Shown piece after piece: positions 3,271 through 51,145 of a stretch of DNA of 64,000 nucleotides. Position 1 is the stretch's first letter, and each line of letters begins with the position of its first letter. The notes below the pieces were generated by a model. It had not been told where the DNA came from. It searched no databases and worked only from the letters and a program-made list of their open reading frames with translations. Origin of the DNA: a virus (Duplodnaviria > Heunggongvirae > Uroviricota > Caudoviricetes); the IMG/VR virus record IMGVR_UViG_3300038450_000150. One strand, written 5' to 3'. A program made the translations under genes and the position numbers.

Positions 3271-3534
3271 TCAGTCCTCATTGAGTTCTCGTGCAATCTT
3301 ATGGAGAGCCATATCGTAACCACAGTGGGAACAGTGAACATAAATCCACTGTCTCTCTTCCATAATATTTCCGTAACTGTCTAGAGTTCGAAAACCACCA
3401 TCATGGTCATACTCCCTTAAACCGCTTCCTCTTAATGCCTTTCCACAGAGGCAAGTTGGCTTCTTACTCTCTATCAGGTTGGCCAGATAGGTTAAGTCTA
3501 TCGGTTCTTCGAGTCTGTTCGTCATATTGGTCAA
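3271..3534 (-). CDS. Zn-binding small protein (87 aa)
   Basis: CLCGK...HCSHCGY cysteine pairs. TTTATAAA at 3555-3562 lies 20 nt upstream. Confidence 0.4.
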   Translation of the reverse strand: MTNMTNRLEEPIDLTYLANLIESKKPTCLCGKALRGSGLREYDHDGGFRTLDSYGNIMEERQWIYVHCSHCGYDMALHKIARELNED

Positions 3535-4313
3535 AGCTGATAGGTATGTGTGTGTTTATAAATGTTATGGACTACTGGTGTTTTAATTGAATAAAAAAGC
3601 ATATTTAGATATTCTACACCCTCTTCTGATATGAAGTTTGGGACGTTGTAATTAGCATTTGTGTATCTTCTCTCAGCCAATACTTTCTCATCTGTGATTG
3701 GATTGTAGCCTTTTTTTAAGTAATATTCAGATTTAAGGATTACACCGTTTTGTTGCCATAATGGTGCATAGTCAGTGTCAAAACCTCTCTCCTTACACAC
3801 TTCCTTCAATTGGTTTCCATTGAGTCCCTTGAGAGTACTGGCTGTTTTGGCTGGACTTAGATTATCTACTCTTAACACCATAGCTTCAGCCCAAGCATTT
3901 AGGAAGTTGCGTTTACACTCAGCTTGCCTCCAAATTAAGTATTTAGTAACATCTGCATCATCTACCATTGGGACTATTCTGCAATCAAAACTCGCCTTTG
4001 ACCCTAGCTCGGAGAAGGAAGAAGCAAAGTGACTAGGCATAAGAGAATCAAGTTTTTCTATTCTATCAAAGACAGTTGGCTCAAAAAAGATGAAACTAAT
4101 CTCATCTGAGAAGTAATATGCAAGTGACGGATTAAAAGCCTTGAAGAATTCTCTTGCTGCGTCTAGGAATCTTACAGAAAGCCTATCATCAAATGGCTTC
4201 CTCATTCCTTTTGTAAAGGTGTGAAATGCCCATCCGTCAAGCCTAGCTATAAATGGTGTGGTCACTCGAATATTGTTGAATATCTCCTTATCTTTGAAAT
4301 TCGTTTGCTCCAT
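3531..4313 (-). CDS. thg1: tRNA-His guanylyltransferase-like (Thg1-like 3'-5' nucleotidyltransferase)
   Basis: ARLDGWAFHTF, AYYFSDEISFIF, HFASSF and YLIWRQAECKRNFLN match the Thg1 signature blocks (RLDGRNFHRF / GQSDEYSFVF / SWRQADCHINNLYN). Confidence 0.8.
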   Translation of the reverse strand: MEQTNFKDKEIFNNIRVTTPFIARLDGWAFHTFTKGMRKPFDDRLSVRFLDAAREFFKAFNPSLAYYFSDEISFIFFEPTVFDRIEKLDSLMPSHFASSFSELGSKASFDCRIVPMVDDADVTKYLIWRQAECKRNFLNAWAEAMVLRVDNLSPAKTASTLKGLNGNQLKEVCKERGFDTDYAPLWQQNGVILKSEYYLKKGYNPITDEKVLAERRYTNANYNVPNFISEEGVEYLNMLFYSIKTPVVHNIYKHTHTYQL

Positions 4314-4543
4314 TATTTATCACCTTTGATTCTGATAGTCACTATACTTTCACCATCTATAAGAATAAAGTAACTGCCAATTTCCTTAGTGTTCCAAACA
4401 GCCTTGATTGTCTGACCATCAAATGCAACCATTATTTTTGTAGCCATTTCTGGTGTCATATCAATTGGATTGAGCTTGATGATATCTTTGGATTCAAAAA
4501 GATCCTTTAAATTGGCTGATCTCACATCTCTATGGCTGTGCAT
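4313..4543 (-). CDS. hypothetical protein (76 aa)
   Basis: ORF. Promoter motif at 4572-4591. Confidence 0.35.
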   Translation of the reverse strand: MHSHRDVRSANLKDLFESKDIIKLNPIDMTPEMATKIMVAFDGQTIKAVWNTKEIGSYFILIDGESIVTIRIKGDK

Positions 4544-5449: not shown

Positions 5450-5479
5450 GTCATCACGGATTAGAAACAGAGTGTGCGT

Positions 5480-5746
5480 TTATAAATATTGTGGAACTGG
5501 AGATACCTTATTTATATAATCTGGGTGATTTTTTAGCAATTCCATAGTCTCTTTGAAATAATGCGCCCAAGATCGTGAACCACACATCGGACAGGTGGAG
5601 AAAACCATAACCTTCTCGGAATCACCATAGTCCCTGATGTCCTTCATTGTTCGAAGCCAGTCGAAGTGTGTTGATGTTTTATATCCACATTCTGGGCATT
5701 CATCACTCATTCCCAGTCGGTGGCTTCTTTCCATTATTAGACTCAT
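5480..5746 (-). CDS. Zn-ribbon protein (88 aa)
   Basis: CPECGYK...CPMCGS. TATA variant tttataag at 5769. Confidence 0.4.
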   Translation of the reverse strand: MSLIMERSHRLGMSDECPECGYKTSTHFDWLRTMKDIRDYGDSEKVMVFSTCPMCGSRSWAHYFKETMELLKNHPDYINKVSPVPQYL

Positions 5747-7949: not shown

Positions 7950-8171
7950 TTAGTCTTTATAAATATTTTGAAGTTTCTCGTATGGAACTGCTTGCTTTCT
8001 TTTTATAATTGAAGTCCATTTGATTATATCGTGGTTATAGCCCATTCTGCATTCGTTTGGACGTTCTAGGGGAACTTCGTCAAACTCTTCTTTGCAGTGA
8101 ATACAAACGTATTTTTTATGCAGTTTTAAGCACCTTCTCTTCGTGCCTGAAGAGCATTGCACCGAGATCAC
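7950..8171 (-). CDS. Zn-binding small protein (73 aa)
   Basis: C-x-HC...C pairs. Overlaps the next ORF by 56 nt, so the true start is uncertain. Confidence 0.3.
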   Translation of the reverse strand: MISVQCSSGTKRRCLKLHKKYVCIHCKEEFDEVPLERPNECRMGYNHDIIKWTSIIKRKQAVPYEKLQNIYKD

Positions 8172-10335: not shown

Positions 10336-11088
10336 TTACTTCTTCCTAAAGATGTTTAGTACAAGATCAACAACACAGAACGCTATCGCTATTACCGAGA
10401 GCAATGTGCTCCATATAGGTGCAGAATCACCTTGTGCGCCTGTTGCTCCAGTAAGTCCTACTGGACCTTGAACTCCCTGAATGCCTTGGATGCCTTGTGC
10501 GCCTGTTAATCCAGTCGCTCCTGTTGCGCCTGTGTCACCCTTATCACCTTTGATACCTTGAATTCCCTGATCTCCTTTTTGTCCCTGTGAACCAACTGGA
10601 CCAACTGGGCCTTGTGGACCCCTTGCTCCAGTAGCACCAGTGGAACCAGTTGCACCAGTTTCACCAGTAGAACCTGTCGCACCCGTTGCTCCAGTGGAAC
10701 CAGTCGCTCCAGTATCTCCCTTGGGACCAGGCGTTAGTTGAATGTTTCCAATTTCAGTCTGGAGATTTGTAATCTGTGTTTGTAGGCTATCAAGCCTTGT
10801 TTGAATTACAGAATCACCATCTGTACACTTCTCGATATCCTCAACTTCAGATGTTAATGCAGCTAGTTGGGACTTCAACTGTAGGAGAAGTGTTTGGTCA
10901 CAGTTGTTTGTTAGTGCATTTATCTTAACATTCAGAGCGTTAATCTGATTCTGTAGATCAGTAATTTGCCCTGGAATGCCATTGTTGTTATTATTTCCAT
11001 CATCACACGCAAGAGCGTGTGGAACAACAAGAACCGACATTAAAAATAGGCATACTATGCCTATTAATCCTCTCTTTTTGATCATCAT
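10336..11088 (-). CDS. collagen-like repeat membrane protein (250 aa)
   Basis: Signal/TM N-terminus, heptad coiled coil, about 45 G-x-y triplets ([13 protein letters not shown]...[10 protein letters not shown]), C-terminal TM helix. Confidence 0.65.
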
Positions 11089-11116: not shown

Positions 11117-11135
11117 TTTATAAATATTTGGATTA
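11117..11135 (-). promoter_or_regulatory. BRE/TATA-like promoter motif
   Basis: tttataaatatttggatta, 28 nt upstream of the start at 11088. Confidence 0.55.
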
Positions 11136-12770: not shown

Positions 12771-14681
12771 TTAGCCTAAATTAGTCCATTGCCTTGTATG
12801 GAACTCAACTTGTTTCATCTTATTCCAACTTGAGACAGGGACAAAGTATCCGACTATTCTGGTCATCCAGTCAAGTTCGTTTGAGCCACAAACTGGGCAA
12901 GTATTGTAGACACCCATCGAGTTGTGTCCTTTCTTACAGAGTGTGAATCCACGATTCAAGGCAAACTGCACGAGATCTGTGTTCTTGATTAGTCTGTCCT
13001 GGACTTTGAATCCATTGATCTCATCCATCGAGCCAAGGATATTGAGGTGCGCCATACTTCCACCAGTAGTTGTGTTCTGGAACTTGCCCTCAACCTCAAC
13101 TCTCTTACCCATAGGAATGTCATAACTTAGTGGGACAAACTGGCTGTTGTAGAACTGTTTTGTTGCTGTCTCAGGGAATTTGATTTTATCCTTTGCTGCT
13201 AGAAGTCCAGACGCACTTTCTGCTGGAACCTCTTCGATGTTGTACATTACGCCATCTTCGTGGGAGAACTGAACTGATAATTGCTTCATAAGGGATAGTA
13301 TTTTCAGACCTTGTGCCTGTCCTTCACCCTCTGTAATGGTTCCACCCATATACTCAATAGCATCTGCAAAGCCAACAAAGCCTATGGTGCTGAAGAAATT
13401 GGAATCAAGATTGAGTATTCCGTTCCTGAAGAATTCGTGGTACTTTACACGTCTTGCTCCTAGAATGTCTCTTCTGTGAACAAAGAGAAGCTGTCTAGCC
13501 TGACCAACACGATCAACTAGTAGTCTCTCGAACTCAGCCCAATTTCCCTTTGCCTCTAGTGCTATCCTTGGGAGATTGACCGTAACAACAGCGTGTGAAC
13601 CTAGAGTTAGGAAACTGCCAAAGGTGTTGTTGACCTTCATCTTCAACATATCCTCTATGTCGAGAGTTAGCTTGCAACACATAGATAATTTCTTCAAGTC
13701 TGTGTTCATATTTCTAAGAATGTTTAGGAAACAGAAGTCCTTGTTGAGTGTGAGGATCCTGTGATACTCTTCTGGATATTCCTTCTCCATTGAAGGATCA
13801 ATTACCAGAGTTGTTATCGGGAAACGATAAGGCAGATTCTGTAATTTCTTATCTGGACCAACCATACCCTTTGCAAGGAACTCTAGGAAGATCATCTGGT
13901 TCCTCATAATCTCGTCTATTAAATCTCCAATCTTGTAGTCTGAGTCTGGCCAGATATAATCTGCAAACATCGACCTCATAGTCTCTGGACTTAGGATACT
14001 GACGTTTGTGAATGGAGATTGACCTGAGAGGCGTTCCTTATCGGACACACCGTGAACTAGATTTTGCATATCGTTTAGTCTGGATTCATCTGGATAGTTG
14101 CCAACCATCTTTGTGAAGTAACTGTAGTTTACGAAGAAATCTGTGAGTGCTGTCGCTCCAGCAAAGCAATTTGCAGCAGCCTGGATTAGTCGAGCAGTTA
14201 GATTTGTGAAACTTGCTGGACGCTTTGGTGGTAGAGTTGGAACATCACTAAATTGAACTTGACCATAGAGTAAAGGAGTTGTTGAAAGCCCTATACAATA
14301 TGGGAGCTGGTAGAGAGTTGAGTTGTGGATGTAGAGTGCGCCATTGAATACATCACCGATTAACTCATCACCATTGTATTTCCTGCGGTTTGCATATCTC
14401 CTGTAGAGATAATAGCAACTAAGTTTTTCAATGGGATTGTTTACTTCGGTGATTTGATTCACAAAACTCTTCTTCTCTCCAGTATTGCCAAGATTGGCAT
14501 TGGGATTGATTGTAACAGCATCTACTGGTTGCGACCAGTAATCTCTCCTAAGTTTGAAAGGATTGATATTTCCCAAGCCATCCATTTTTATAAGGTCATA
14601 ATCAACATCTGCAAGATAGTCTGCAAATTCCTCATCAAAAGTTCCAAGTATATTTCTGAATTTCAGTTCATCACGATTCAT
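12771..14681 (-). CDS. nrdD: anaerobic ribonucleoside-triphosphate reductase (class III RNR)
   Basis: 636 aa. C-terminal Zn ribbon C...H...CPVCGS followed by the glycyl-radical motif RIVGYF. Confidence 0.85.
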   Translation of the reverse strand: MNRDELKFRNILGTFDEEFADYLADVDYDLIKMDGLGNINPFKLRRDYWSQPVDAVTINPNANLGNTGEKKSFVNQITEVNNPIEKLSCYYLYRRYANRRKYNGDELIGDVFNGALYIHNSTLYQLPYCIGLSTTPLLYGQVQFSDVPTLPPKRPASFTNLTARLIQAAANCFAGATALTDFFVNYSYFTKMVGNYPDESRLNDMQNLVHGVSDKERLSGQSPFTNVSILSPETMRSMFADYIWPDSDYKIGDLIDEIMRNQMIFLEFLAKGMVGPDKKLQNLPYRFPITTLVIDPSMEKEYPEEYHRILTLNKDFCFLNILRNMNTDLKKLSMCCKLTLDIEDMLKMKVNNTFGSFLTLGSHAVVTVNLPRIALEAKGNWAEFERLLVDRVGQARQLLFVHRRDILGARRVKYHEFFRNGILNLDSNFFSTIGFVGFADAIEYMGGTITEGEGQAQGLKILSLMKQLSVQFSHEDGVMYNIEEVPAESASGLLAAKDKIKFPETATKQFYNSQFVPLSYDIPMGKRVEVEGKFQNTTTGGSMAHLNILGSMDEINGFKVQDRLIKNTDLVQFALNRGFTLCKKGHNSMGVYNTCPVCGSNELDWMTRIVGYFVPVSSWNKMKQVEFHTRQWTNLG

Positions 14682-32941: not shown

Positions 32942-32963
32942 TTTATAAATATTTGGAATTTGG
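32942..32963 (-). promoter_or_regulatory. BRE/TATA-like promoter motif upstream of the SPFH gene
   Basis: tttataaatatttggaatttgg. Confidence 0.5.
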
Positions 32964-33045
32964 TGGGGTTACAAGGAGTCGAACCCTGACCCTTGGTTTT
33001 CCCCTATTTCTGGGGACCAAGATGCTACCGCTACACCATAACCCC
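32961..33045 (-). tRNA. tRNA with an apparent 13-20 nt insertion in the anticodon region (intron-like), isotype undetermined
   Basis: Minus-strand sequence GGGGTTA...GGTTCGACTCC...TAACCCCACCA has acceptor and T-arm. The segment CTTGG-TCCCCAGAAATAGGGGAAAA-CCAAG is too long for a 7-nt anticodon loop. Confidence 0.5.
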
Positions 33046-33093
33046 AATGATATGCTCTAAGAAATGTGTGAATTTATAAATCTTGTGATTGGG

Positions 33094-33522
33094 TTAATCC
33101 CCACCGCCACCGCCATCTCCCCCACCACCGCCATCTCCTCCTCCTGCATCTCCACCACCACCAGCATCAGAACCACCACCACTGCCACCAGAGTCGATTC
33201 CACCACCTGAACCACCATTTGATGCACTGCCTGAGTCACCTGGACTTGGACCCTCTTCGTCATCTCCATTTGAGGATGTTGATGGATTTGAACTACTTGA
33301 ACTGCCACCACCGTCATAGAAGAAATATGGCATCCAAGGAACCCATCCAGTGTCAGTCGAGTTGTCTTTGCCTGATGTCGGTTTTGGATATGACCTTGAT
33401 TGCTGGTTAATCATAGCTGTTTTTATATTGGAAAGTAAAATAACTGTCAATAACAGTATGACAAACACCATAATTGCTGAAAGGGCTAAAGTTAGCTTTG
33501 TTCCCGTTCTCATATCGATCAA
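33094..33522 (-). CDS. membrane-anchored Gly/Asp/Ser-rich low-complexity protein (142 aa)
   Basis: N-terminal TM helix. C-terminal GSGGGIDSGGSGGGSDAGGGGDAGGGDGGGGGD. Promoter at 33543, 20 nt upstream. Confidence 0.45.
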   Translation of the reverse strand: MIDMRTGTKLTLALSAIMVFVILLLTVILLSNIKTAMINQQSRSYPKPTSGKDNSTDTGWVPWMPYFFYDGGGSSSSSNPSTSSNGDDEEGPSPGDSGSASNGGSGGGIDSGGSGGGSDAGGGGDAGGGDGGGGGDGGGGGD

Positions 33523-33625
33523 TAAATTGTAAGTTTGAGTGTTTATAAATATTTAGTATATTTTTTATATAGATAATTAATAAAATTTTGTTTGAAACTA
33601 ATTATCTCGGAAATAAATAATTATT

Positions 33626-34396
33626 TTATGGTATCAGTTCTATCTTAGTAACCGTATCATCATATGATGGTGCTTCATAGATAGTTCTGTCCCAATATGG
33701 TTGACCAACTTTAACGTGCATTATTATATCAGTCTGTGGCTCGATGTAGACAATTCCCCTGTCTGTGGTGTTGAAAGCTACCAAAGCGTGTCCTACACTT
33801 GTTGGCATAAAATCACCCATCTCGATAGACACAAAGAAACACCGATAACCAGCATTAAACGCATTTCTCTTCACATCTGATGTGAAATCGTGGCAAACAT
33901 AGCTACCTTCTACATATTCTTTCTCATCTGTCTTGTCATTCTGTATGAATGTAAGCATCTGTTGATATGTTGGGTCTTTGATATTAAATCCTGTAGCTTT
34001 CCATCCTTTTTGATATCCTACTGTATAGCCTGTTTTTTCACCCAAGCCATAGCCAGTTGTATTTCCGACTTTGTAACCGTTGGTGTATCCAGTGGCAATA
34101 CCAGCCGTGTTACCAGTATTGTATCCAGCTAGATCACCCACATTGTAGCCTCTACCATACCCAACGGAATCACCAGCCGTATATCCTGTATTATACCCAT
34201 CCTTTGTTCCATTTGAATAACCAGAGGTATATCCAACTGGATAACCTGATTTGTATCCAGCAATCTGTCCCTCAGTATATCCAGCAATATGTCCTTGAGT
34301 GTTTCCAAAGTAAAAACCAAAAAAGGTTCCACCAAGGATCATTGCTGTCATTCCCACAATTACTATTGTACTTGTCTTTTGGTTCATTTCATTCAC
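33626..34396 (-). CDS. membrane-anchored protein with GY-x-x tetrapeptide repeats and a C-terminal transglutaminase-like (Cys-His-Asp) domain
   Basis: N-terminal TM. About 25 repeats of the (T/S)GY(x)xG type. C-terminal YVCHDF...VGHALVAF...IEPQTD resembles the transglutaminase-like cysteine-peptidase core. Confidence 0.45.
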   Translation of the reverse strand: MNEMNQKTSTIVIVGMTAMILGGTFFGFYFGNTQGHIAGYTEGQIAGYKSGYPVGYTSGYSNGTKDGYNTGYTAGDSVGYGRGYNVGDLAGYNTGNTAGIATGYTNGYKVGNTTGYGLGEKTGYTVGYQKGWKATGFNIKDPTYQQMLTFIQNDKTDEKEYVEGSYVCHDFTSDVKRNAFNAGYRCFFVSIEMGDFMPTSVGHALVAFNTTDRGIVYIEPQTDIIMHVKVGQPYWDRTIYEAPSYDDTVTKIELIP

Positions 34397-34440
34397 TATT
34401 ACGTATTGATAATTAACTTACTTAAAAATGTTATGGATTA

Positions 34441-34520
34441 TGGCGGGTTCGGAGGGATTTGAACCCCCGACAAGTGGATTAAAAGTCCACTGCGCTAAGA
34501 CCTGACTGCGCCACGAACCC
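34441..34520 (-). tRNA. tRNA-Lys (anticodon TTT), CCA encoded
   Basis: GGGTTCG...GTGGA-CTTTTAA-TCCAC...GGGGGTTCAAATCCCTC-CGAACCC-G-CCA. Own TATA at 34543. Confidence 0.75.
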
Positions 34521-34559
34521 AGCACTGAATAGTATGACTGAATTTATAAATATTGTGAA

Positions 34560-34637
34560 TGGTGGACTCGAAGGGATTTGAACCCCTGACCCTTGGCTTA
34601 GAAGGCCAATGCTCTATCCAAGCTGTGCTACGAGTCC
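34560..34637 (-). tRNA. tRNA-Arg (anticodon TCT), CCA encoded
   Basis: GGACTCG...GGCCTTCTAAGCC...GGGGTTCAAATCCC...CGAGTCC-A-CCA. Confidence 0.75.
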
Positions 34638-34639
34638 AA

Positions 34640-34719
34640 TGGTGAGTCTGAGGGGATTTGAACCCCTGAATGGAGGATTAAGGGTCCTCTGCGCTAGACC
34701 TTGCTACGCCACAGACTCA
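34640..34719 (-). tRNA. tRNA-Lys (anticodon CTT), CCA encoded
   Basis: GAGTCTG...GAGGACCCTTAATCCTC...GGGGTTCAAATCCCC...CAGACTC-A-CCA. TATA at 34739, about 20 nt upstream. Confidence 0.75.
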
Positions 34720-34757
34720 GCATAAAAGACAAAATCTGATTTATAAATATTTAGAAT

Positions 34758-35018
34758 CTACTCTTCTGGCTTCTCAGCGACTTCCTTTACACTATCAAGG
34801 AAATCTACATTGTTTGGAACTTCTACAATATTCTTTGATGTCACTCCAATAGATTGAACAAGTACACCAAAAAATGCACCTAAACCAAGTATTCCAAAAA
34901 GATATATAATTTCATTAGGGTGAATTAGGGTGAATATAAGTGAAACAACTATTGAAATTGATAATAGCAACCAACCCTTGGCATTAATGCCACCCTCTAC
35001 CACAACTTTACGACTCAT
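34758..35018 (-). CDS. small membrane protein (86 aa)
   Basis: Two TM helices. Confidence 0.3.
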   Translation of the reverse strand: MSRKVVVEGGINAKGWLLLSISIVVSLIFTLIHPNEIIYLFGILGLGAFFGVLVQSIGVTSKNIVEVPNNVDFLDSVKEVAEKPEE

Positions 35019-35290
35019 TTCTTTTTCACCTTTTTTATTTTCTCTGGAATTACAGCTTTTTGATTTTCAAGATAAGGATCATCTGGCTTACCAAGTTCGT
35101 CCCTAAGTTTTTTATTAATCCAGGCTTCAAATTTACATTTTTGACATTGTACTACCATTGGCTCTGGTAGCTGGTTTGGTCTTTTGCCCCATATTGGTAT
35201 GAGAATAAATTTCCAATCTGCCTGATAGGAATTATGTTCAGTGCAACCATTAGGACAATATATCCCTATGAATTCTTTAGGATCTGCCAT
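35015..35290 (-). CDS. Zn-ribbon protein (91 aa)
   Basis: CPNGC...CQKCK. Confidence 0.35.
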   Translation of the reverse strand: MADPKEFIGIYCPNGCTEHNSYQADWKFILIPIWGKRPNQLPEPMVVQCQKCKFEAWINKKLRDELGKPDDPYLENQKAVIPEKIKKVKKK

Positions 35291-35459
35291 ATTATATCAA
35301 GTTCCCGTAACTGCTTTACCCATAAATTCTGCAAGCCATAGCAGGACTTTGAAGATGAAATACACACCAACTCCTAGGGCAAAGACGAGCAGAAGATAGA
35401 TTAATATCTTCTTTTCATTTGCGTGTTCATCATCTTCGTCTATGTCAAACAATTTAGGT

Positions 35460-35711
35460 TCACCTAACTTTCCTTATCTTGCTTGTAATTACAATTTCAC
35501 CATCTTTAATATCCATTTTTACTGTTTGAATTTTAACTAGTTTGAAGATGTATTGATTGACACCTTGTTCATTAGCCCAACCTTGCTTAACATCCATTCC
35601 AAACTGTTTCTCTGCCTCTTTGAGGGTTTTGCACCAAGAAACTTGCTCGAAGGCACAACCATTACCGTGTGCTTCACGATTATCAAAACACTTAATATAT
35701 TTTGTGCTCAT
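35460..35711 (-). CDS. hypothetical protein (83 aa)
   Basis: ORF. Confidence 0.35.
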   Translation of the reverse strand: MSTKYIKCFDNREAHGNGCAFEQVSWCKTLKEAEKQFGMDVKQGWANEQGVNQYIFKLVKIQTVKMDIKDGEIVITSKIRKVR

Positions 35712-35911
35712 TTCTTTGCAGACTCCTTCTCCTGTTTCATAACTGTAATACTATCCCAATAATTTTTCTCGTATATGCTCCTTCCTTTTTCATAGTTGAA
35801 AAAATGAATTAAGCACTCGATTACGTCTAATTCGTCTGTTGCCTCTCTTGAGAATTCGGTTTTTTGTTTACCTTCCTTTCCTTTCCATTTTATCGTGTAT
35901 TTAGTGTTCAT
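35708..35911 (-). CDS. hypothetical protein (67 aa)
   Basis: ORF. Confidence 0.3.
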   Translation of the reverse strand: MNTKYTIKWKGKEGKQKTEFSREATDELDVIECLIHFFNYEKGRSIYEKNYWDSITVMKQEKESAKK

Positions 35912-36144
35912 TCCTTTGCAACCTCTGCATCCACGGTCTTTAGGAATTCAATGAACTTGGCTATGTGGTTTTGACCAAGGTCATTCATAATCTCATCGTA
36001 TCGCTCGACCCCTTCTGGATAGCCCATCTCCTTGAGAACCTTGTCGATAATCTTCATTCGCTTGACAAGTCTTTCCTGTTCCTTGGGATCTGAGGATACA
36101 ACCTTTCCATTTTTCACATACACATTGATCGGCATTTGTTTCAC
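35908..36144 (-). CDS. hypothetical protein (78 aa)
   Basis: ORF. Confidence 0.3.
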   Translation of the reverse strand: MKQMPINVYVKNGKVVSSDPKEQERLVKRMKIIDKVLKEMGYPEGVERYDEIMNDLGQNHIAKFIEFLKTVDAEVAKE

Positions 36145-36354
36145 CTACACATTGAGAATCTTTGCCATTTTAATGAGATTCTTCTGTGTTTCAATTAGAC
36201 TTTCCCTAATTGCTACAATCTCCAGAAGTTCTGGTGTGGTTATCTTATCAGTATTAAAAAATGCGTATTGATCAATCGCTTCTGCATATGGCTTCAAATC
36301 CATTGCAAAACGAACTCCTTCGAACCACTGGCAATCACGCTTTCTAGCAGACAT
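36145..36354 (-). CDS. hypothetical protein (69 aa)
   Basis: ORF. Promoter motif at 36384-36402. Confidence 0.3.
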   Translation of the reverse strand: MSARKRDCQWFEGVRFAMDLKPYAEAIDQYAFFNTDKITTPELLEIVAIRESLIETQKNLIKMAKILNV

Positions 36355-36407
36355 TTTGAACGTAGGAGAGATAGATGTGTGAATTTATAAATATTGTGAT
36401 TAGTTAT

Positions 36408-36596
36408 TTATGGACAGATAATACTTCCTCTAATAAAATTATCATACTTCCTATTTTCCTTGAATTTCTCAATCTTTCTTTCACGTTCTGTAGGTGGAAG
36501 AACCTCACAAAAATTCGGGTATTGATCCAAATGCCAGTGCCAGACCCATTCCTTATCCGACATTTGTTGACCACAATGCAAACACCTTACCATCAT
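36408..36596 (-). CDS. Zn-binding mini protein (62 aa)
   Basis: CLHCGQQ...HWH. Confidence 0.3.
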   Translation of the reverse strand: MMVRCLHCGQQMSDKEWVWHWHLDQYPNFCEVLPPTERERKIEKFKENRKYDNFIRGSIICP

Positions 36597-37015
36597 TTAG
36601 AATTGTTCACCTCACTGAGTTCTTCCATCAATGTTACTTTTTTGAGCTGGGTTGGTGGTGTTTGGACATCAATCGTTCCAAGTGTTGAGTCTACATTCCA
36701 AACCATAAACTTGAAACCACCAACTGTGAAATTTTGGGGTAAGTTGTTGTTATAAAATGTTATAATATATCCACCAAGGTGCATTGAATGTGTGAGAGGT
36801 GTAGCGGAAAATAAACCACCACCATTGTCTGTAAAGCCATTATATGTGTATGGACCAAGTTGATCGCCTGGAATGAGGGTCACTATGTTCTTTGGTTTCA
36901 ATGGAACTGGTGTTGTGAATACAGATGAAATAATACTAATTATTGCTATAGACATAAATAATCCAAAAAATAGTTTTGGTATCATATCGAACATATCTAA
37001 GTCAGACACTTTCAT
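36593..37015 (-). CDS. secreted/membrane beta-rich protein (140 aa)
   Basis: N-terminal hydrophobic signal/TM. Downstream of the collagen-like gene in the same operon. Confidence 0.4.
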   Translation of the reverse strand: MKVSDLDMFDMIPKLFFGLFMSIAIISIISSVFTTPVPLKPKNIVTLIPGDQLGPYTYNGFTDNGGGLFSATPLTHSMHLGGYIITFYNNNLPQNFTVGGFKFMVWNVDSTLGTIDVQTPPTQLKKVTLMEELSEVNNSK

Positions 37016-37021
37016 TTCACC

Positions 37022-37867
37022 TTATTCATCATCGTCTTGAGGATTAGAACGTGGTCTACCTCTCGGTCTTGTTGGTGGTAATGGTTGTGGCTTACTACGA
37101 ACAAATGCACCTATTGAAAATGCCATTGACATAACACAAAACCCAATAATTGTATAGAATTCCCATTCTGGTGCTATTTCTCCTTGGGGACCCTGAATGC
37201 CTTGAGGACCTGTTGCGCCTGTGTCACCCTTATCACCCTTTGCACCAGTTGCACCAGTTAATCCCCTATCACCCTGTATTCCTTGTATTCCTTGTAATCC
37301 CTGTATGCCTTGTGTTCCGTTAAATCCTCTTAATCCTTGAGGACCAACTGGACCAATAAGTTTTGCTTTTATAGTTGAGTTCAATTTATCAAACCAGTCT
37401 GGTGGTGGAATGAAATTTGTGATTGTAAATGATTTTGCAATTGTTACTTTACTTCCATCCATTCCTTCAACAATAATTTTTATTGTGTGCAGACCAAGAT
37501 TAGAGTAGGGTGTTTGATTAGGTACTAAAATAAATGTGTCCCAAGTTACTAAAATATTTGCTCCAGCAGTACTGTATAATGGTTCAGATTTAATAATCTC
37601 AGAAAAATCATCATAATATACATATAAATATGAAGAAACTGGACAAGTTGTGTGATCAGCTTCTGGATTAACTTCAATATGTATATTTATTTTTGTATTA
37701 ACATCACCAGATTCTGGTGATATTATTACAGATAAATTATTTATTGGGACATCTGCTTTTATTAATTTAGGTGTAGAGATTACAAAACATATTAAAAAAA
37801 TCATTAAGATAAATTTGTGTTTGAACATTTTATAATTTCTCACCACAGTGTTTGCAAAACTGAGCAT
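37022..37867 (-). CDS. collagen-like membrane protein with C-terminal AT-hook-like tail
   Basis: Signal peptide, globular domain, G-x-y repeats (GPVGPQGLRGFNGTQGIQGLQG...GDTGATGPQGIQGPQG), TM helix, then tail RSKPQPLPPTRPRGRPRSNPQDDDE. Confidence 0.6.
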   Translation of the reverse strand: MLSFANTVVRNYKMFKHKFILMIFLICFVISTPKLIKADVPINNLSVIISPESGDVNTKINIHIEVNPEADHTTCPVSSYLYVYYDDFSEIIKSEPLYSTAGANILVTWDTFILVPNQTPYSNLGLHTIKIIVEGMDGSKVTIAKSFTITNFIPPPDWFDKLNSTIKAKLIGPVGPQGLRGFNGTQGIQGLQGIQGIQGDRGLTGATGAKGDKGDTGATGPQGIQGPQGEIAPEWEFYTIIGFCVMSMAFSIGAFVRSKPQPLPPTRPRGRPRSNPQDDDE

Positions 37868-38120
37868 CTTCAGAATTAAGTGTTTTGCATTTTTGGCATT
37901 TGATTTTTATACGTATTTTTTGGTCAGAATTAACTTCTTGTTTCATAATAATTTGCTGGTGTTGACTGGATGTGATTAAACCAGCAAAAAGTATTATTCC
38001 ACCCAAAAACATTGCTGGAACACCTATAAGTGCTCCTATAATTGTAAGTGAAATTAGCCATCCTAAAAAACCAATTATAAGCCCAATGATTATTAATCCA
38101 AGACGCAAGTTGATTACCAT
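37830..38120 (-). CDS. polytopic membrane protein with C-terminal Zn ribbon (about 96 aa)
   Basis: Start moved to the internal Met (MVINL...) because the longer ORF runs into tRNA-Ile. TATA at 38140-38147 lies 20 nt upstream. C-terminal CQKCK...CKHCG. Confidence 0.4.
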   Translation of the reverse strand: MVINLRLGLIIIGLIIGFLGWLISLTIIGALIGVPAMFLGGIILFAGLITSSQHQQIIMKQEVNSDQKIRIKIKCQKCKTLNSEDAQFCKHCGEKL

Positions 38121-38158
38121 AAAATAACAAATATGAAAGTTTATAAATATTATGAAAA

Positions 38159-38235
38159 TGGTGGCGAAGAGCAGACTTGAACTGCTGATGCCCTGATTAT
38201 CAGTCAGGTGGACTACCAAGCTGTCCTACTTCGCC
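38159..38235 (-). tRNA. tRNA-Ile (anticodon GAT), CCA encoded
   Basis: GGCGAAG...CCTGA-CTGATAA-TCAGG...CAGCAGTTCAAGTCTGCTG? T-arm...CTTCGCC-A-CCA. Confidence 0.7.
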
Positions 38236-38240
38236 AAGAA

Positions 38241-38321
38241 TGGTAGAGAGGATGGGATTCGAACCCACATAAAGGCAAGGATTATGAGTCCTCCGAGATA
38301 ACCAGGTTCCTCTACCTCTCT
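38241..38321 (-). tRNA. tRNA with anticodon CAT (Met, or Ile2 if lysidine/agmatidine-modified); 81 nt, 8-nt variable loop
   Basis: AGAGAGG...GAGGA-CTCATAA-TCCTT...GTGGGTTCGAATCCCAT-CCTCTCT-A-CCA. Only 5 nt from tRNA-Ile. TATA at 38343-38350, 21 nt upstream. Confidence 0.6.
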
Positions 38322-38342
38322 GGGTATTATAAATAAAGTGTG

Positions 38343-38350
38343 TTTATAAA
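38343..38350 (-). promoter_or_regulatory. TATA box of the tRNA(CAT)-tRNA-Ile transcription unit
   Basis: gtgtgtttataaagattt. TATA is 21 nt upstream of the mature 5' end. Confidence 0.5.
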
Positions 38351-38353
38351 GAT

Positions 38354-39811
38354 TTATTCTCTGACGATGTAAAGGTTGTTTAATGACCTTGTTAGAGCTA
38401 CAAACTTGCAGTTATCTTCCTCTTTCAACTGCTGGGGATTGCCCTGCTTTACAGCATATGGGTGTGGCATAAGATCATAGCGGAGTATGTAGACGTTCTC
38501 AGACTCAAGTCCCTTAGCCCTATGAACACTGCTGAAAACTATGCCCTCAATATTGTCACGGAAAATGAATTTCACTTTTGATGTAAGATCGGTTATGGTT
38601 TTGCTCTCATCGGCTATAGCAAAGATTGTGTCAACCCTGTCACTGAGGGTGAGTATTGATGCTTCCTTTTTCTGGATCTTCAACTTCTCGGTCTGCTTCT
38701 GCTGGTACTCTTTCAGACCGATTAGGAAAGTGCTGAGATCGGTAGCACCACACATCTTTACGACACGGTTGATTAGGTTCTCAAGCTGATCGCCTATGCT
38801 CTTGCCAACAATTATGACCTTCTTGCCGTTTCGAATAAGTTCGAAGGCTGGTTCTACGAGAGGGGCATTTGTTCGGCAGAGAACCATATCCTTCGGCTGG
38901 ACTTTTTTCATAAATGTGGGATAGTCTATTTCCTCAACTTTTCCCTGCTTGGCATTTGGACCACATTCGTGTGTGATGTTTGGGAAGGTCTTGTTTACAA
39001 AGGCAACGACAGACTTTGGGTTTCTGTAACTGATGCTGAGTGGAAATTCGACAGCATCAAGCATATTTCCCAAGTAATCCATAGCATTGATTCCAGCTCC
39101 ACGGAAACCGTATATGGCTTGGTTTCTGTCACCGATTACTATTGTGCATCCGTTGGGTTTCCTGATTTTGAGGATCATTTGAACCTGAGTCTCGTTCAAG
39201 TCCTGTGCCTCATCAACAAGGACATAATCGTATTTTCTCATTGGGATATCGAGAACGACAGGAAGCCAGATCATATCATCATAATCGATTGTTTGTGTGT
39301 CTTTTTTAGATCGTTGTATAACATAATTAACGGCCTTGAACACTGTTTTTTCATTACCATTTAATTTAATGTTATAGAAATCACACATTTCAATCATAGA
39401 ATCTTCATCTTCTGAATCTGTTAATGTGTTTTTCACATATTGAACAACTTTAGCAATTGTCTGCCAGAGCATTTTATTGACAACAGTGTCCTCTAGGATT
39501 GAGTATGTTTTTTGATTGTCCATAATGAAATTACCATATACATTACGAAGTTCACGATTGCCAAGAGAATGAAGTGTTTTTGCTTCTCCACCAGGCATAT
39601 TTGCTAGTTTTTCTTTTGCCTCAAGTTGATTCTTTTTATTAAAAACAAGATATATCCAGCTTTTATTTTTTGGTATATAATTTTTAATAAACTCTTGAAT
39701 TGTTCGAGTTTTACCAGAGCCAGCAGTTGCACTCACTATGATGTTCTTATCTCCCTTTCTGCCAGCCTCAAAGATTGCCTTCTGGTATGAGGACGGGACG
39801 AATGTTGACAT
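38354..39811 (-). CDS. UvrD/PcrA/Rep-family SF1 DNA helicase
   Basis: Walker A ATAGSGKTR, motif II VLVDEAQDLNETQ, motif III VIGDRNQAIYGFRGA. Confidence 0.75.
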   Translation of the reverse strand: MSTFVPSSYQKAIFEAGRKGDKNIIVSATAGSGKTRTIQEFIKNYIPKNKSWIYLVFNKKNQLEAKEKLANMPGGEAKTLHSLGNRELRNVYGNFIMDNQKTYSILEDTVVNKMLWQTIAKVVQYVKNTLTDSEDEDSMIEMCDFYNIKLNGNEKTVFKAVNYVIQRSKKDTQTIDYDDMIWLPVVLDIPMRKYDYVLVDEAQDLNETQVQMILKIRKPNGCTIVIGDRNQAIYGFRGAGINAMDYLGNMLDAVEFPLSISYRNPKSVVAFVNKTFPNITHECGPNAKQGKVEEIDYPTFMKKVQPKDMVLCRTNAPLVEPAFELIRNGKKVIIVGKSIGDQLENLINRVVKMCGATDLSTFLIGLKEYQQKQTEKLKIQKKEASILTLSDRVDTIFAIADESKTITDLTSKVKFIFRDNIEGIVFSSVHRAKGLESENVYILRYDLMPHPYAVKQGNPQQLKEEDNCKFVALTRSLNNLYIVRE

Positions 39812-39813
39812 TT

Positions 39814-40038: not shown

Positions 40039-40084
40039 TTTATACGGTGTAGATGTGTTTAGTACTCTTATAAATATTGTGGAT

Positions 40085-40285: not shown

Positions 40286-40313
40286 AGAAACACGTTAAGA
40301 CTTTATAAATATT

Positions 40314-40389
40314 TGGAGCCCCAGGCAGGACTCGGACCTGCGACCATCAACTTACAAGGTTGACGCACTACCAACTATGCTACAGGGGC
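40314..40389 (-). tRNA. tRNA-Thr (anticodon TGT), CCA encoded
   Basis: GCCCCTG...TCAAC-CTTGTAA-GTTGA...GGTCCGAGTCC...CTGGGGC-T-CCA. One T-T mismatch in the acceptor stem. TATA variant at 40416. Confidence 0.65.
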
Positions 40390-40425
40390 AACAGTGGTAA
40401 AAGGTATGTGTATGGTTATAAATAT

Positions 40426-40929: not shown

Positions 40930-40933
40930 GAGA

Positions 40934-42730
40934 TCACCTAATAGCTTCCTTAAACCACTTCGGGAAGAATCCTATATTCTGGTTGAATAAGTCTGAGAAC
41001 TTCCCATCAATTATGAAAGTCTCACCCCAATCGTCAACACTTCTACAGACTCTACCATAAGTCTGGATTAGGAGCATTGCGGTTGTCCAGTTGTACCAGG
41101 ATTGATCCTTTTCGACCCTCTTCTTAATCTGAGGATCACCGAGAGATGGATAGGGTACTTTAACTAGGACTTGCCATCTAGCCAAATCATCTTTTAGGTC
41201 GATGCCCATTTTCATACTCGGTGTTGTCATAATGCAAGGTGCTTTTGCTTGGAAGAATCTCTCGAAAGTATCTTCACGCCTCTCATCTGTGTCAATAAAG
41301 TTTCCTCTCTCATCTCTAAGAGAAACATTGGTCATCATATACTGCTTGTATTTTGAATTAGCCATAATATATCTTGCAATTTCGTTATTGTGAGTGTGTA
41401 TTACACCTTTGTGCTGCAAACGAGTTGGAATGATATCGTTGTCAATTATTCTAAGCATATTCGGTAGGAACTGATCCATTTCTTTGAAAATCGCTCTTCC
41501 AGCAAATTTTTGGTAGAGTGGACGATGTTCGACTGGGAATGTTGAGTTGCCTATTCTGAAAAACTTAACCTCTTCTTCTATGCCTAAGTATTTCTGTAAT
41601 TTTTCTTTGTCAAGTATTGTGGCCGATATAAGAATGTGTTTGTCAGTGTGCTTGAAAAGCTGGTCAGAATATTTATTAATTGTAACTGGTTTGAAAGTGG
41701 CAGATGTTTTGTCTTTTAAGACAACCCAGTTATCAATATCATCTTCTAGACTATCTAGCAACTCTGTGATTCTATTTGTTATATTTTCAACTGTTTTACG
41801 ACTCTTCAGTTCTTGTACACGATTTGAACTATCACCTATATCCCTTTGGATTGAGGCGAAAGTTCCATACTTTTCTGAGATCCCTTTAAGTTCACCCTGG
41901 ATATTCTGCAACCATTTTTCCCAATCTTCCATTTTTGTGTATTCTGGTATTATTGGAAATGGCATATCTTTAAAATACATCCAAATACCATTAAATGTTC
42001 TCGAAGAAATTAAAACTTCAATATAGGTCATTAAAGTATTTTCGATTGTGTGTGCCTCATCAAAGATTCCTAAAAATCTTTTATTGAAGCTGTGTGCGTG
42101 ATTTTGTTCGTGAAGGTAATAGGAATAGTTGTGGATGGTAAGAGGTGAATGGATTGCCTTGTCCTTGGCTTGCCAGTAGGCACAGAGTGGATAAGAACAA
42201 TTGCTCCAATCGAACTTAACTCCAAACTTGTCACGATCTGCTCTCGGTGACGCATTATCATCTTCAAAATTTTCTGGGTCAATTTCAGCACCCATCTCCA
42301 TATCGGTTAGTGCAGACTCACGTTTTACTTGGTTTGCCTTGTGGGGGCATTTGTAACCATTAATCAGGGTACACGGTGCTCTGTCTGCATAGAGTGTGTT
42401 CCCTATTCTCTCAGCCCAAAACTCTGGTTCCATATCTCCTGCTGTGAGAGAGCAGGGATAATTGCCCCTACCTTTGATTAGTGCTATGTCTGGAAAATCA
42501 CGTAGATACTGTCCCTGTAGGTAGATGTCGTTTACAACAAAGTGTGTAAGGTTGCCATATTCCTGATAGACATACTTAGCGATTGCATAGGCTACAGGTG
42601 ACTTACCAAAGCCTGTAGGTGCTTCTAGGAAGATGTAATTGTAGGGATCAAGGTTGGCTTCTATAAGACTTAGGATTTCCTTCTGGTATGGACGGAATTC
42701 CTTGAATGGGAAACAGGCTTCAATTGCCAA
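40934..42730 (-). CDS. XPD/Rad3-like SF2 (DEAH) helicase with Fe-S cluster cysteines
   Basis: Walker A EAPTGFGKS, DEAH box FDEAHTIEN, Cys cluster between them (CSLTAG...CTLINGYKCPH...CSYPLC), C-terminal VKVPYPSLGDP. Confidence 0.65.
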   Translation of the reverse strand: MAIEACFPFKEFRPYQKEILSLIEANLDPYNYIFLEAPTGFGKSPVAYAIAKYVYQEYGNLTHFVVNDIYLQGQYLRDFPDIALIKGRGNYPCSLTAGDMEPEFWAERIGNTLYADRAPCTLINGYKCPHKANQVKRESALTDMEMGAEIDPENFEDDNASPRADRDKFGVKFDWSNCSYPLCAYWQAKDKAIHSPLTIHNYSYYLHEQNHAHSFNKRFLGIFDEAHTIENTLMTYIEVLISSRTFNGIWMYFKDMPFPIIPEYTKMEDWEKWLQNIQGELKGISEKYGTFASIQRDIGDSSNRVQELKSRKTVENITNRITELLDSLEDDIDNWVVLKDKTSATFKPVTINKYSDQLFKHTDKHILISATILDKEKLQKYLGIEEEVKFFRIGNSTFPVEHRPLYQKFAGRAIFKEMDQFLPNMLRIIDNDIIPTRLQHKGVIHTHNNEIARYIMANSKYKQYMMTNVSLRDERGNFIDTDERREDTFERFFQAKAPCIMTTPSMKMGIDLKDDLARWQVLVKVPYPSLGDPQIKKRVEKDQSWYNWTTAMLLIQTYGRVCRSVDDWGETFIIDGKFSDLFNQNIGFFPKWFKEAIR

Positions 42731-43730
42731 CGTCTATACCACCGAGTTGATATTTTCTTACGTGATTACGAATTGAAACCTCTGTCACGCCACAGGTTGT
42801 TGCTATAACCTTCTGGGAGATGTTAAGTTCCATCTTCTTGGATGCCAGATAAATTGCACAAGCTGCTACACAGAGTGGACTTGAGCCACTTGTGATTTTT
42901 AAGTCCTCTGCCTCTCTGCAAATCTTTAGGGCTAACATTTCAAATTCACCAGATAGGTTTAACTTAGAGGTGAACTGGGAAATAAAGATTGCAGGATCCC
43001 TGCGAGTTGGCTTGATCTTCATTGATTCTACCATAAGGCGATAGCAACGAGCAATATCCTTCTTGTCGATGCCTGTGACCTCTTCAATATTCTCCATTGT
43101 TGTTGGAATGCCATTCTCTCTGAGGCTGTAGTACATACAGGCAACTAGGATTTGCTGGATTGAACGTCCTCTAATGAGGTTTATGGCCACCGATTTTGTA
43201 AATATATCAAAGATATCGTCATCTATTGCATCTGGTATGCTGAGTCTGTATTTGTAGGTTGTATAAAGTGACCTTGCAGAGGATAGTGTTCTGGTTAGAG
43301 ATGCCTTATCACCTGTTGCCCTATTGTTCATTCTTGAAAGACGAAGATATTCTATCTTCTTTTCTCCTGTAAGTTTCTTGTTTTGACCATCTAAATTTGA
43401 CCAAGGAGCAATCCTTGTATGGCTTGAAGAGCCATTAACGACACCTGGATTTGTGATTGGCGTAGCCCTGTCAAGTTGCTGTGGCTCACCATCAAAGTTT
43501 CGCCATTCCTTGTCTCTGGAAATTACTTGTTCCTCAAGAACAACCAACCCACAGTTTTTGCAAACAACCTCACCAGTAACATTATCGTGATAGAAGTCAC
43601 GACTGCCACAAATTGGGCAGTTTAATGGAGCATCTTGTGGGGCTTCGTGGGACGGGTCATTAGACATAAACATCACTCCTATTGTACCTACATTTATAAA
43701 TATTATGAGATTTTTATCCAAACCACTCAT
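42720..43730 (-). CDS. tfb: transcription factor B (TFB/TFIIB homolog)
   Basis: N-terminal Zn ribbon CPICGS...CKNCG followed by two cyclin-like repeats. 336 aa. Confidence 0.8.
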   Translation of the reverse strand: MSGLDKNLIIFINVGTIGVMFMSNDPSHEAPQDAPLNCPICGSRDFYHDNVTGEVVCKNCGLVVLEEQVISRDKEWRNFDGEPQQLDRATPITNPGVVNGSSSHTRIAPWSNLDGQNKKLTGEKKIEYLRLSRMNNRATGDKASLTRTLSSARSLYTTYKYRLSIPDAIDDDIFDIFTKSVAINLIRGRSIQQILVACMYYSLRENGIPTTMENIEEVTGIDKKDIARCYRLMVESMKIKPTRRDPAIFISQFTSKLNLSGEFEMLALKICREAEDLKITSGSSPLCVAACAIYLASKKMELNISQKVIATTCGVTEVSIRNHVRKYQLGGIDVGN

Positions 43731-51063: not shown

Positions 51064-51145
51064 AACAGCGTCAATACGTAACCCCCACTATAAACTTTAT
51101 AAATATTATCGGCTAGACGGATTTCTTGTTTTTCATAATTTAAAA

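Follow-up and report, generated by a model that had tools for sequence, protein, structure and literature searches.

An archaeal-type Thg1-like protein encoded by a tRNA-carrying, archaeal virus-like genome from peat

Thg1-like proteins (TLPs) are the only known polymerases that synthesize RNA in the 3′-to-5′ direction, and which substrates they serve naturally in Bacteria and Archaea is still debated (PMC6471195). Here, we describe a TLP gene in a stretch of 64,000 nucleotides (nt), hereafter the window, from the IMG/VR virus record IMGVR_UViG_3300038450_000150, which apparently derives from an archaeal virus-like genome of ~197 kilobases (kb) from anoxic peat and not from a bacteriophage. 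The gene product, a protein of 260 amino acids (aa), clearly belongs to the Thg1 superfamily and is very probably an active archaeal-type TLP, and it is conserved in a clade encoded on virus-like DNA. With regard to mechanism and ALTERNATIVES, the best explanation, to which we give a probability of about 0.5, is that the enzyme completes the 5′ ends of tRNAs in general during infection, be they of host or viral origin, in a manner that depends on the template but not on the anticodon.

Identity and fold of the viral TLP

The gene is an ATG-initiated open reading frame (ORF) on the minus strand (Table 1), and independent pipelines predict the identical 260-aa product on 14 contigs, which come from NCBI, JGI, ENA, and Logan assemblies. 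Pfam Thg1 (PF04446) matches residues 6–115 with an expectation value (E) of 1.6e-19 (70.6 bits against a gathering score of 29.2), and the PHROG 4717 profile, named "tRNA-His guanylyltransferase", matches residues 13–210 (E 1.4e-33); no NCBIfam model matches the protein. When the PDB is searched with phmmer, the Methanosarcina acetivorans TLP (MaTLP; 5AXK) is the best match (E 3.3e-33, query residues 7–240), the Bacillus thuringiensis TLP (BtTLP; 4KGK) scores E 1.9e-17, and the eukaryotic Thg1 enzymes of human, Candida, and yeast fall between E 5e-8 and 6e-6 (4.7e-8 for human 3OTB and 6.1e-6 for yeast). We place the protein in the TLP subfamily because its scores against MaTLP and BtTLP are far better than those against human and yeast Thg1, and because it clusters within the archaeal TLPs in a neighbour-joining tree.

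The predicted structure leads to the same family. An AlphaFold2 model computed with 15 homologues (predicted local distance difference test of 86.1 and predicted template modelling score of 0.82) superposes over its full length on 5AXK in Foldseek (E 1.2e-19), with a template modelling score of 0.76 when normalized by the query and 0.82–0.88 when normalized by the target, and the top 32 Foldseek matches in the PDB are all Thg1 or TLP structures. The model includes a long β-hairpin formed by residues 191–204 and 209–221. It has the polymerase-palm-like fold known from solved Thg1 and TLP structures, and it shows that the C-terminal Thg1C domain is present, despite a Pfam score that is below threshold by sequence (E 0.025). 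An earlier reading of the window, made from the letters alone and referred to here as the original prediction, had proposed a Thg1-like 3′–5′ nucleotidyltransferase and named Pfam Thg1 and Thg1_C as the domains to compare it with. The enzyme family is recovered by Pfam, phmmer, and AlphaFold2/Foldseek alike, and with respect to the domains, PF04446 was found by sequence and Thg1C in the model. The identification itself is routine and a modest extension of a known theme, as annotation pipelines already label this protein "tRNA(His) 5′-end guanylyltransferase".

Active-site and tRNA-contact residues

Functional residues were assigned from an alignment of the window protein with its 14 closest database homologues and MaTLP, to which 80 further archaeal TLPs from GTDB species genomes were added (96 sequences in total), with roles mapped from the structural and mutational data on MaTLP of Kimura et al. 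2016 (PMC4820378). The two signature blocks are R24-L25-D26-G27 ("RLDG") and S69-D70-E71 ("SDE"). D26 and D70 correspond to D21 and D69 of the two-metal site of MaTLP, and E71 to its E70 (D29, D76, and E77 in human Thg1, HsThg1), while R24, K39, and S69 align with MaTLP R19, K36, and S68. R135 and N136 align with MaTLP R136 and N137, which contact the 5′ nucleotide and its phosphate, and R215 aligns with the conserved R215 of the elbow-binding β-hairpin of MaTLP. Eight of these residues (R24, D26, S69, D70, E71, R135, N136, and R215) are invariant in 96/96 sequences, including the catalytic carboxylates on whose presence in the two blocks the original prediction had rested. K39 is invariant within the viral clade and is K, R, or A among the other TLPs. 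As judged from the alignment, the protein appears to have every residue known to be needed for template-dependent 3′–5′ addition to tRNA 5′ ends.

The residues with which MaTLP reads the anticodon of tRNA-His differ. In MaTLP, a triple mutation of F174, N179, and R188 makes the enzyme less active on tRNA-His lacking G-1, whereas truncated tRNA-Phe is used no less well (PMC4820378). The corresponding residues of the window protein are K174, D179, and Q188, and the state x-D-Q is found in 10/10 members of the viral clade; among the other 86 archaeal TLPs, F is present in 63, N in 79, and R in 78. This triad defines a function of MaTLP and not membership of the family. The tRNA-His-specific binding mode of MaTLP cannot be assumed for the K/D/Q subfamily, and the replaced triad would favour a general, template-dependent completion of tRNA 5′ ends. 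A divergent TLP subfamily with an altered anticodon-site triad is also a further candidate for 5′-end RNA labelling and engineering.

Relatives and origin of the viral TLP

The closest proteins (P0002–P0010) share 53–65% identity with the window protein in the multiple alignment and 55–67% in BLASTP local alignments. Together with it they form a monophyletic clade of at least 10 proteins that is divided into two subclades in the neighbour-joining tree, and for those members with available neighbourhoods the genes lie on virus-like DNA. P0006 is encoded on contigs of up to 213 kb, where an XPD-like helicase gene lies on one side and a UvrD-like one on the other, in the company of Phage_endo_I and many DNA methyltransferases; the P0009 locus has the same synteny, and the P0005 locus is ORFan-dense and resembles the window. 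In L087 (6182–19023) and L093 (6463–14916), two loci of related elements, the TLP gene is flanked by the genes for the XPD-like and UvrD-like helicases. The equivalent helicase interval of the window (38354–42730) holds tRNA-Thr and tRNA-Met/Ile instead, and the TLP gene lies ~35 kb away among ORFans. DNA methyltransferase and restriction-like genes, not seen in the window, are numerous in the related elements.

Beyond this clade, the closest cellular TLPs share 32–45% identity with the window protein and are taxonomically scattered. P0012 (45% identity), from a metagenome-assembled genome labelled "Thaumarchaeota", has S-adenosylmethionine (SAM) synthetase, THUMP, and amidohydrolase genes as neighbours, and P0017 (35% identity) lies in a methanogen-like chromosome region. 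With one genome per GTDB species, 388 loci encode relatives, and the best 80 of the 388, at 32–42% identity, are essentially all archaeal (Methanomicrobiales, Methanosarcinales, Bathyarchaeia, Woesearchaeota, Nitrososphaerota, and Atabeyarchaeia). One contig from a "Bacteroidales" bin groups with Methanosarcinaceae in the tree and is probably mis-binned.

Bacteriophage copies are more distant. With tblastn, we find homologues in 139 deposited phage genomes, all below 60% identity and mostly at 24–35%; nearly all are annotated "tRNA-His guanylyltransferase", in genomes of 110–635 kb. Cellular TLPs of archaea resemble the window protein more closely than any phage copy does, which points to an independent acquisition in an archaeal virus lineage, and the donor would have been an archaeal TLP lineage of non-methanogen type. 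A recent horizontal acquisition was considered and rejected, since the guanine-plus-cytosine content of the gene (0.377 overall and 0.345 at third codon positions) agrees with the means of the element (0.41 and 0.36, respectively). Judging from composition and conservation, the TLP would be an old, selectively maintained component of this viral lineage.

Virus-encoded TLPs as such are already known, so the original prediction overstated the case in calling this an unusual auxiliary function: besides the 139 phage records and PHROG 4717, Iyer et al. 2021 reported sporadic Thg1 genes in jumbo phages and discussed them as restorers of tRNA 5′-end nucleotides (PMC7824862). What appears to be new is an independent, archaeal-lineage instance, the first found in an archaeal virus. 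No archaeal virus occurs among the ~85 phage TLP records inspected, megablast of 12 kb against 50,697 phage and archaeal-virus records returned no relative at the DNA level, and a scan of IMG/VR returned no relative of the window TLP. In the literature, we found neither an archaeal-virus TLP nor a biochemically characterized viral TLP; only the jumbo-phage survey turned up. The present case extends virus-encoded TLPs from bacteriophages to the archaeal virosphere and points to convergent selection for tRNA 5′-end maintenance among large viruses.

The virus-like element and its tRNA genes

Coding sequence makes up 91% of the window, and the genes, many of them very small, are nearly all on the minus strand up to ~51 kb. 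The archaeal affiliation of the element is shown by four features: a TFB gene of its own, a family B DNA polymerase (PolB) with its nearest matches in haloarchaeal tailed viruses, TATA promoters of archaeal type, and a tRNA-Trp with an intron-like insertion. Among 50,697 phage and archaeal-virus genomes, PolB is most similar to that of haloarchaeal tailed viruses (~24% identity over 97% of its length), and the TFB-like protein matches only proteins of Halorubrum tailed viruses and of a Sulfolobales virus (~25% identity). The replication genes also have matches among the virus families of PHROG. Neither capsid nor terminase genes were recognized in the ~80 kb covered, and the label "virus" follows the classification by the depositors together with the affinities of the replication genes.

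The NCBI copy of the element (JAFMOA010002524.1; 197,240 nt) is among 5,006 viral operational taxonomic units deposited from the SPRUCE peatland in Minnesota, described by ter Horst et al. 2021 (PMC8626947). In this record, the TLP gene lies at position 13,047 and a GT2 gene (window 62187–63119) at 151,719, which means that the window spans the record ends; the implied circle of ~197,478 nt is 238 nt off the deposited record. Because of this arrangement, and because independent assemblies are of nearly equal size (197,232, 197,240, and 197,619 nt), the genome appears to be complete and circular or circularly permuted.

The original prediction described the element as tRNA-bearing, and both ARAGORN and Rfam recover seven tRNA genes within 32961–40389, each of them on the minus strand and with an encoded CCA (Table 1). 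In the Rfam alignments, standard pairs occupy acceptor positions 1–3 in 7/7 tRNAs, the sole non-standard acceptor pair being 6:67 of tRNA-Thr. In tRNA-Trp, the two strands of the anticodon stem are 18 nt apart, that is, 7 nt plus an 11-nt insertion able to form a CCCC/GGGG hairpin, which we consider a candidate archaeal-type intron. Splicing at the canonical site would leave C and not U at position 33.

A tRNA-His, for which the original prediction had proposed a search elsewhere in the genome, was not detected in the ~80 kb of the ~197-kb genome that were searched, namely the window, 6.5 kb past its left end (L001), and ~9 kb past its right end (L094), nor was one found in the related loci L087, L088, L092, and L093.

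Proposed role in tRNA 5′-end completion

By analogy with MaTLP, R135 and N136 would bind the 5′ end of the acceptor stem, and the flexible β-hairpin with R215 would bind the elbow, with two Mg2+ ions held by D26 and D70 (plus E71). A 5′-monophosphate would be activated with ATP or GTP, or a 5′-triphosphate would be used directly, and nucleotides that pair with the 3′ strand would then be added; once the acceptor stem has reached its full length, the hairpin would be out of reach of the elbow and the reaction would stop. In the infected cell, this would keep the tRNA pool chargeable while the virus runs transcription with its own TFB and supplies its own tRNAs. We favour such general completion because the anticodon triad is replaced and because no tRNA-His was found in the part of the genome that was scanned. 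It is further supported by the preference of all characterized bacterial and archaeal TLPs for 5′-truncated tRNAs over full-length tRNA-His (PMC6471195, PMC3061083). The original prediction had likewise suggested maintenance or repair of tRNA 5′ ends; this accords with the biochemistry of TLPs (PMC4820378, PMC3061083, PMC6471195), and as a role of the viral enzyme it is put forward here conditionally.

Several observations weigh against this proposal. The physiological substrates of cellular TLPs are themselves unresolved (PMC6471195). The acceptor stems are properly paired at positions 1–3 in 7/7 viral tRNA genes, and so the genes themselves demand no repair. The search for tRNA-His covered ~80 kb, and the remaining ~118 kb could hold one. 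Finally, the nearest cellular relatives have a similar triad (KDQ in P0012 and KDR in Woesearchaeota and Micrarchaeota), which makes the replacement a trait of the subfamily and not evidence of viral specialization. For the same reason, we rejected a virus-specific loss of the tRNA-His anticodon site: the change in the triad is real, but it is common to the closest cellular relatives.

We regard as unlikely that the enzyme is instead dedicated to tRNA-His maturation, adding G-1 opposite C73 of host or viral tRNA-His and so securing histidylation during infection. Such a function would agree with the canonical annotation of the Thg1 family, with the addition of G-1 to C73-containing tRNA-His by archaeal TLPs in vitro (PMC3061083, PMC6471195), and with the second, anticodon-dependent binding mode that MaTLP uses for G-1 addition (PMC4820378), and the ~118 kb outside the tRNA search also leave room for it. 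Against it stand the lack of a tRNA-His among the seven tRNAs and in the flanks scanned, the replacement of all three anticodon-site residues of MaTLP across the viral clade, and the fact that G-1 is genome-encoded in most archaea, so that the function is often redundant (PMC6471195).

As viruses retain only useful genes, a TLP kept throughout a group of large archaeal viruses with tRNAs and a transcription factor of their own offers a compact natural system for the study of TLP function in vivo.

Promoters and predicted leaderless tRNAs

The window is rich in a promoter-like 11-mer, ATATTTATAAA, for which 43 occurrences were counted where 4.0 were expected, up to one mismatch being allowed; none of 100 shuffles reached this number. 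It is located upstream of genes and positioned like an archaeal TATA box. In at least 12 protein genes, the ATG follows the end of the TTTATAAA box by 28–29 nt, which is the modal spacing, and a conserved pyrimidine–purine step ("aCGa") at approximately nt 21–23 after the box marks the expected archaeal start site; taken together, these two spacings predict 5′ untranslated regions of ~6 nt, that is, near-leaderless mRNAs. The boxes would represent a single dominant promoter class, possibly read with the viral TFB.

The same geometry applies to several tRNA genes. Three of the five tRNA transcription units are predicted to be transcribed leaderless as 5′-triphosphate tRNAs, and these units have an encoded CCA and short T-rich trailers. 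In the related loci, tRNA-Ser-GCT has its +1 at nt 24 (L087, 4355–4386) and nt 22 (L093, 4347–4376). tRNA-Arg and tRNA-Ile lie 2 and 5 nt behind another tRNA, such that release by an endonuclease would still be required.

These observations bear on a second alternative, in which the TLP polishes leaderless viral tRNAs: starts that slip to +2 would give a 5′-triphosphate tRNA lacking nucleotide 1, the best of the substrates known for TLPs, which the viral TLP would fill. We consider this slightly less likely again than dedicated tRNA-His maturation. It draws on the more than 10-fold enrichment of the promoter box, on the positions of the ATG (28–29 nt) and of the pyrimidine–purine step (~21–23 nt) in protein genes, and on the close agreement of the latter with the tRNA +1 positions (nt 22, 22, and 23 for Lys-CTT, Met, and Lys-TTT, as well as the two tRNA-Ser genes). 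MaTLP is, moreover, ~10-fold more active on triphosphate than on monophosphate tRNA lacking nucleotide 1, and Nanoarchaeum equitans provides a precedent for promoter-positioned leaderless tRNAs (PMC4820378 and PMC10100707, respectively). However, the start sites are predicted from sequence and not mapped, tRNA-Thr and tRNA-Trp have predicted short leaders, and the endonucleolytic cut needed by tRNA-Arg and tRNA-Ile implies that host 5′-processing machinery is used anyway. N. equitans, in addition, makes its leaderless tRNAs without any Thg1 or TLP (PMC10100707).

A broader version of this idea, which we hold to be equally doubtful, is a self-contained tRNA production line in which the viral TFB and the uniform promoter would yield leaderless 5′-triphosphate tRNAs with CCA, and the TLP would fill in late starts of 1–2 nt. 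Within such a production line, the TLP might also add G-1 to a leaderless viral tRNA-His. If true, host RNase P-dependent maturation would be bypassed, and the functional link between leaderless viral tRNAs and the TLP would provide TLPs with a defined natural substrate.

Gene neighbourhood of the TLP

The TLP appears to be the second cistron of a short operon. The 76-aa ORF directly upstream ends in a TAA stop that overlaps the ATG of the TLP gene (TAATG), and a GGTGAT Shine–Dalgarno-like motif lies 8–13 nt before the TLP start; the two genes are probably co-transcribed and translationally coupled from the box ATCTTTATAAA. As a conserved partner protein the 76-aa ORF was rejected, for the ORF that precedes the TLP gene in L087 is not similar to it. 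At the other end, the promoter-like box of the next gene lies within the last TLP codons, which would explain the low confidence of the C-terminal tail in the model; this tail (residues 248–260) is absent from homologues.

Few of the neighbours can be assigned to families: within ±10 kb of the TLP gene, only NrdD and a faint zinc ribbon have a Pfam assignment. RNA ligase, RtcB, kinase-phosphatase, and CCA-adding enzyme genes are seen neither within ±10 kb nor among the best 25 of 41 Pfam and best 25 of 79 PHROG families for the 106 other ORFs of the window. A multi-gene RNA-repair operon was rejected on these grounds, as neither a ligase nor a Pnkp/RtcB or CCA-adding partner appears among the neighbours and these families.

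The same absence bears on counter-defence, in which a host nuclease would trim tRNA 5′ ends upon infection and the viral TLP would reverse the damage. This reading has been offered for jumbo-phage Thg1 together with other RNA-repair genes (PMC7824862), and TLPs can rebuild one or two lost 5′ nucleotides (PMC4820378). Among the neighbours and families covered above, such companion genes are not seen, and the suggestion in the original prediction that repair might follow nuclease attack finds no support. We also know of no described defence nuclease that removes tRNA 5′-terminal nucleotides; the known anti-phage tRNases cut anticodon loops or 3′ ends, damage that a TLP could not mend. We therefore view counter-defence repair as improbable.

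Least probable of all is that the protein acts on the 5′ ends of other structured RNAs or is a neutral passenger without current function: the RNA recognition of TLPs is indeed broader than that of Thg1, and roles outside tRNA have been suggested for them (PMC6471195), but the strict conservation of catalytic and tRNA-contact residues in a diverged viral clade (55–67% identity) and the fully ameliorated composition argue for selection on canonical, tRNA-directed activity.

Comparison with known systems

MaTLP (PDB 5AXK–5AXN; PMC4820378) is the best match in both sequence and structure, and it resembles the window protein in length, metal-binding carboxylates, the R/N pair at the tRNA 5′ end, and the β-hairpin with its conserved Arg. 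The two differ in that identity is only ~31–35%, the triad is K/D/Q in the window protein, and the residue encoded by UAG as pyrrolysine in MaTLP is Trp141, there being no in-frame TAG in the viral gene. The window gene, moreover, lies on a virus-like element and not on a chromosome, and its product branches with non-methanogen TLPs. Across the 122 predicted ORFs of the window, TAG is a rare stop codon (10, versus 71 for TAA and 41 for TGA).

The bacteriophage TLPs of PHROG 4717 (Bacillus phages Bcp1 and G, Caulobacter phage CcrColossus, and Mycobacterium phages Pound and Klein) are similarly encoded by large, tRNA-carrying genomes (110–635 kb), and they are annotated as tRNA-His guanylyltransferases and interpreted in terms of tRNA 5′-end restoration. 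The hosts of these phages are bacteria, and their TLPs share with the window protein only 24–35% identity, often over the N-terminal half alone; no phage copy is as close to it as the archaeal cellular TLPs are.

The eukaryotic Thg1 enzymes (human 3OTB/7CV1, Candida 3WBZ, and yeast 5XOX) have the fold and the catalytic carboxylates in common with the window protein, whereas identity is ~21%, with the E range given above. The motif HINNLYN is the signature of bona fide Thg1. It is absent here: in the alignment to 3OTB, the human block RQADCHINNLYN aligns to RQAECKRNFLNA, and with KRNFLNA in place of HINNLYN, the assignment to a eukaryote-type Thg1 was rejected. The activity particular to eukaryotic Thg1 is a non-templated, anticodon-dependent addition of G-1 opposite A73.

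Mitochondrial 5′-editing TLPs, such as DdiTLP3 of Dictyostelium (PMC5041481, PMC6471195), offer another parallel, in that they act on many tRNAs of a small, tRNA-bearing genetic element. They are, however, defined by encoded mismatches in the first three acceptor pairs, and editing of this type was rejected for the window, where positions 1–3 of the seven tRNAs are free of mismatches. The leaderless tRNAs of N. equitans (PMC10100707) resemble the predicted ones in that the spacing of the TATA box is constant, with its centre ~26 nt before +1 (the N. equitans tRNA promoters lie 26–27 nt upstream), and in their encoded CCA and short trailers. They differ in that N. equitans lacks both RNase P and Thg1/TLP (PMC10100707), while here the fit is exact for only 3/5 units, two tRNAs lie inside dicistronic units, and the starts are predicted.

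Other features of the window

The coordinates of the features discussed here are collected in Table 1. Further genes of the window encode XPD-like and UvrD-like helicases, two RFC clamp-loader subunits, UDG, ERCC4 and PD-(D/E)XK nucleases, a Band-7 protein, two collagen-repeat proteins, and a GH5 cellulase.

Table 1. Positions of the TLP gene and other features in the 64,000-nt window
Feature	Position	Strand	Remarks
Archaeal-type TLP gene, 260 aa	3531..4313	-	Catalytic residues R24, D26, K39, S69, D70, E71
Other parts of the TLP		-	Acceptor-stem contacts R135/N136; β-hairpin ~191–221 including R215; tail 248–260 disordered
76-aa ORF directly upstream of TLP	4313..4543	-	TAA stop overlaps TLP ATG
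Promoter-like box ATCTTTATAAA	4572..4582	-	28 nt upstream of the 76-aa ORF ATG; putative promoter of the two-gene TLP unit
Promoter-like box ACATTTATAAA of next gene	3555..3565	-	Inside last TLP codons (…N-I-Y-K-H…); next gene has ATG at 3525, 84 aa
ATATTTATAAA boxes, examples	2573–2583, 5479–5489, 7956–7966, 11117–11127, 34543–34553, 34740–34750, 51096–51106	-	
tRNA-Trp(CCA)	32961..33045	-	+1 at 28th nt after box; predicted leader ~6 nt
tRNA-Lys(TTT)	34441..34520	-	+1 at 23rd nt after TATA box (34543–34550); predicted leaderless
tRNA-Arg(TCT)	34560..34637	-	2 nt downstream of tRNA-Lys(CTT); would need endonucleolytic 5′ processing
tRNA-Lys(CTT)	34640..34718	-	+1 at 22nd nt after TATA box (34740–34747); predicted leaderless; candidate TLP substrate (inferred)
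tRNA-Ile(GAT)	38159..38235	-	5 nt downstream of tRNA-Met
tRNA-Met(CAT)	38241..38321	-	A1:U72 pair; +1 at 22nd nt after TATA box (38343–38350); predicted leaderless
tRNA-Thr(TGT)	40314..40389	-	+1 at 26th nt after box; predicted leader ~3 nt
Anaerobic class III ribonucleotide reductase NrdD	12771–14681	-	E 3.4e-87
TFIIB/TFB-like transcription factor	42720..43730	-	Pfam TFIIB 1.7e-26; zinc ribbon and two cyclin-fold repeats
Family B DNA polymerase (PolB)	43714–46050	-	TFB gene directly downstream
Collagen-like G-X-Y ORFs (34 and 20 triplets)	10336–11088; 37022–37867	-	Source of "tail fibre" PHROG matches
758-aa protein	58596–60872	+	Two GH5 cellulase-domain matches

A radical-SAM protein is encoded elsewhere in the window; together with NrdD, it would fit an anaerobic host, in line with the peat origin. 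The second of the two collagen-like ORFs lies just upstream of the neighbourhood of the tRNA-Met/Ile unit. Beside the GH5 gene, beyond the right end of the window (L094, 1–10933), there are ~12 glycan-modification genes, which include a radical-SAM protein, hexapeptide acyltransferases, several methyltransferases, WbqC, a PIG-L deacetylase, and GT2 glycosyltransferases. The combination of GH5 and glycan genes is unusual cargo for a peat archaeal virus.

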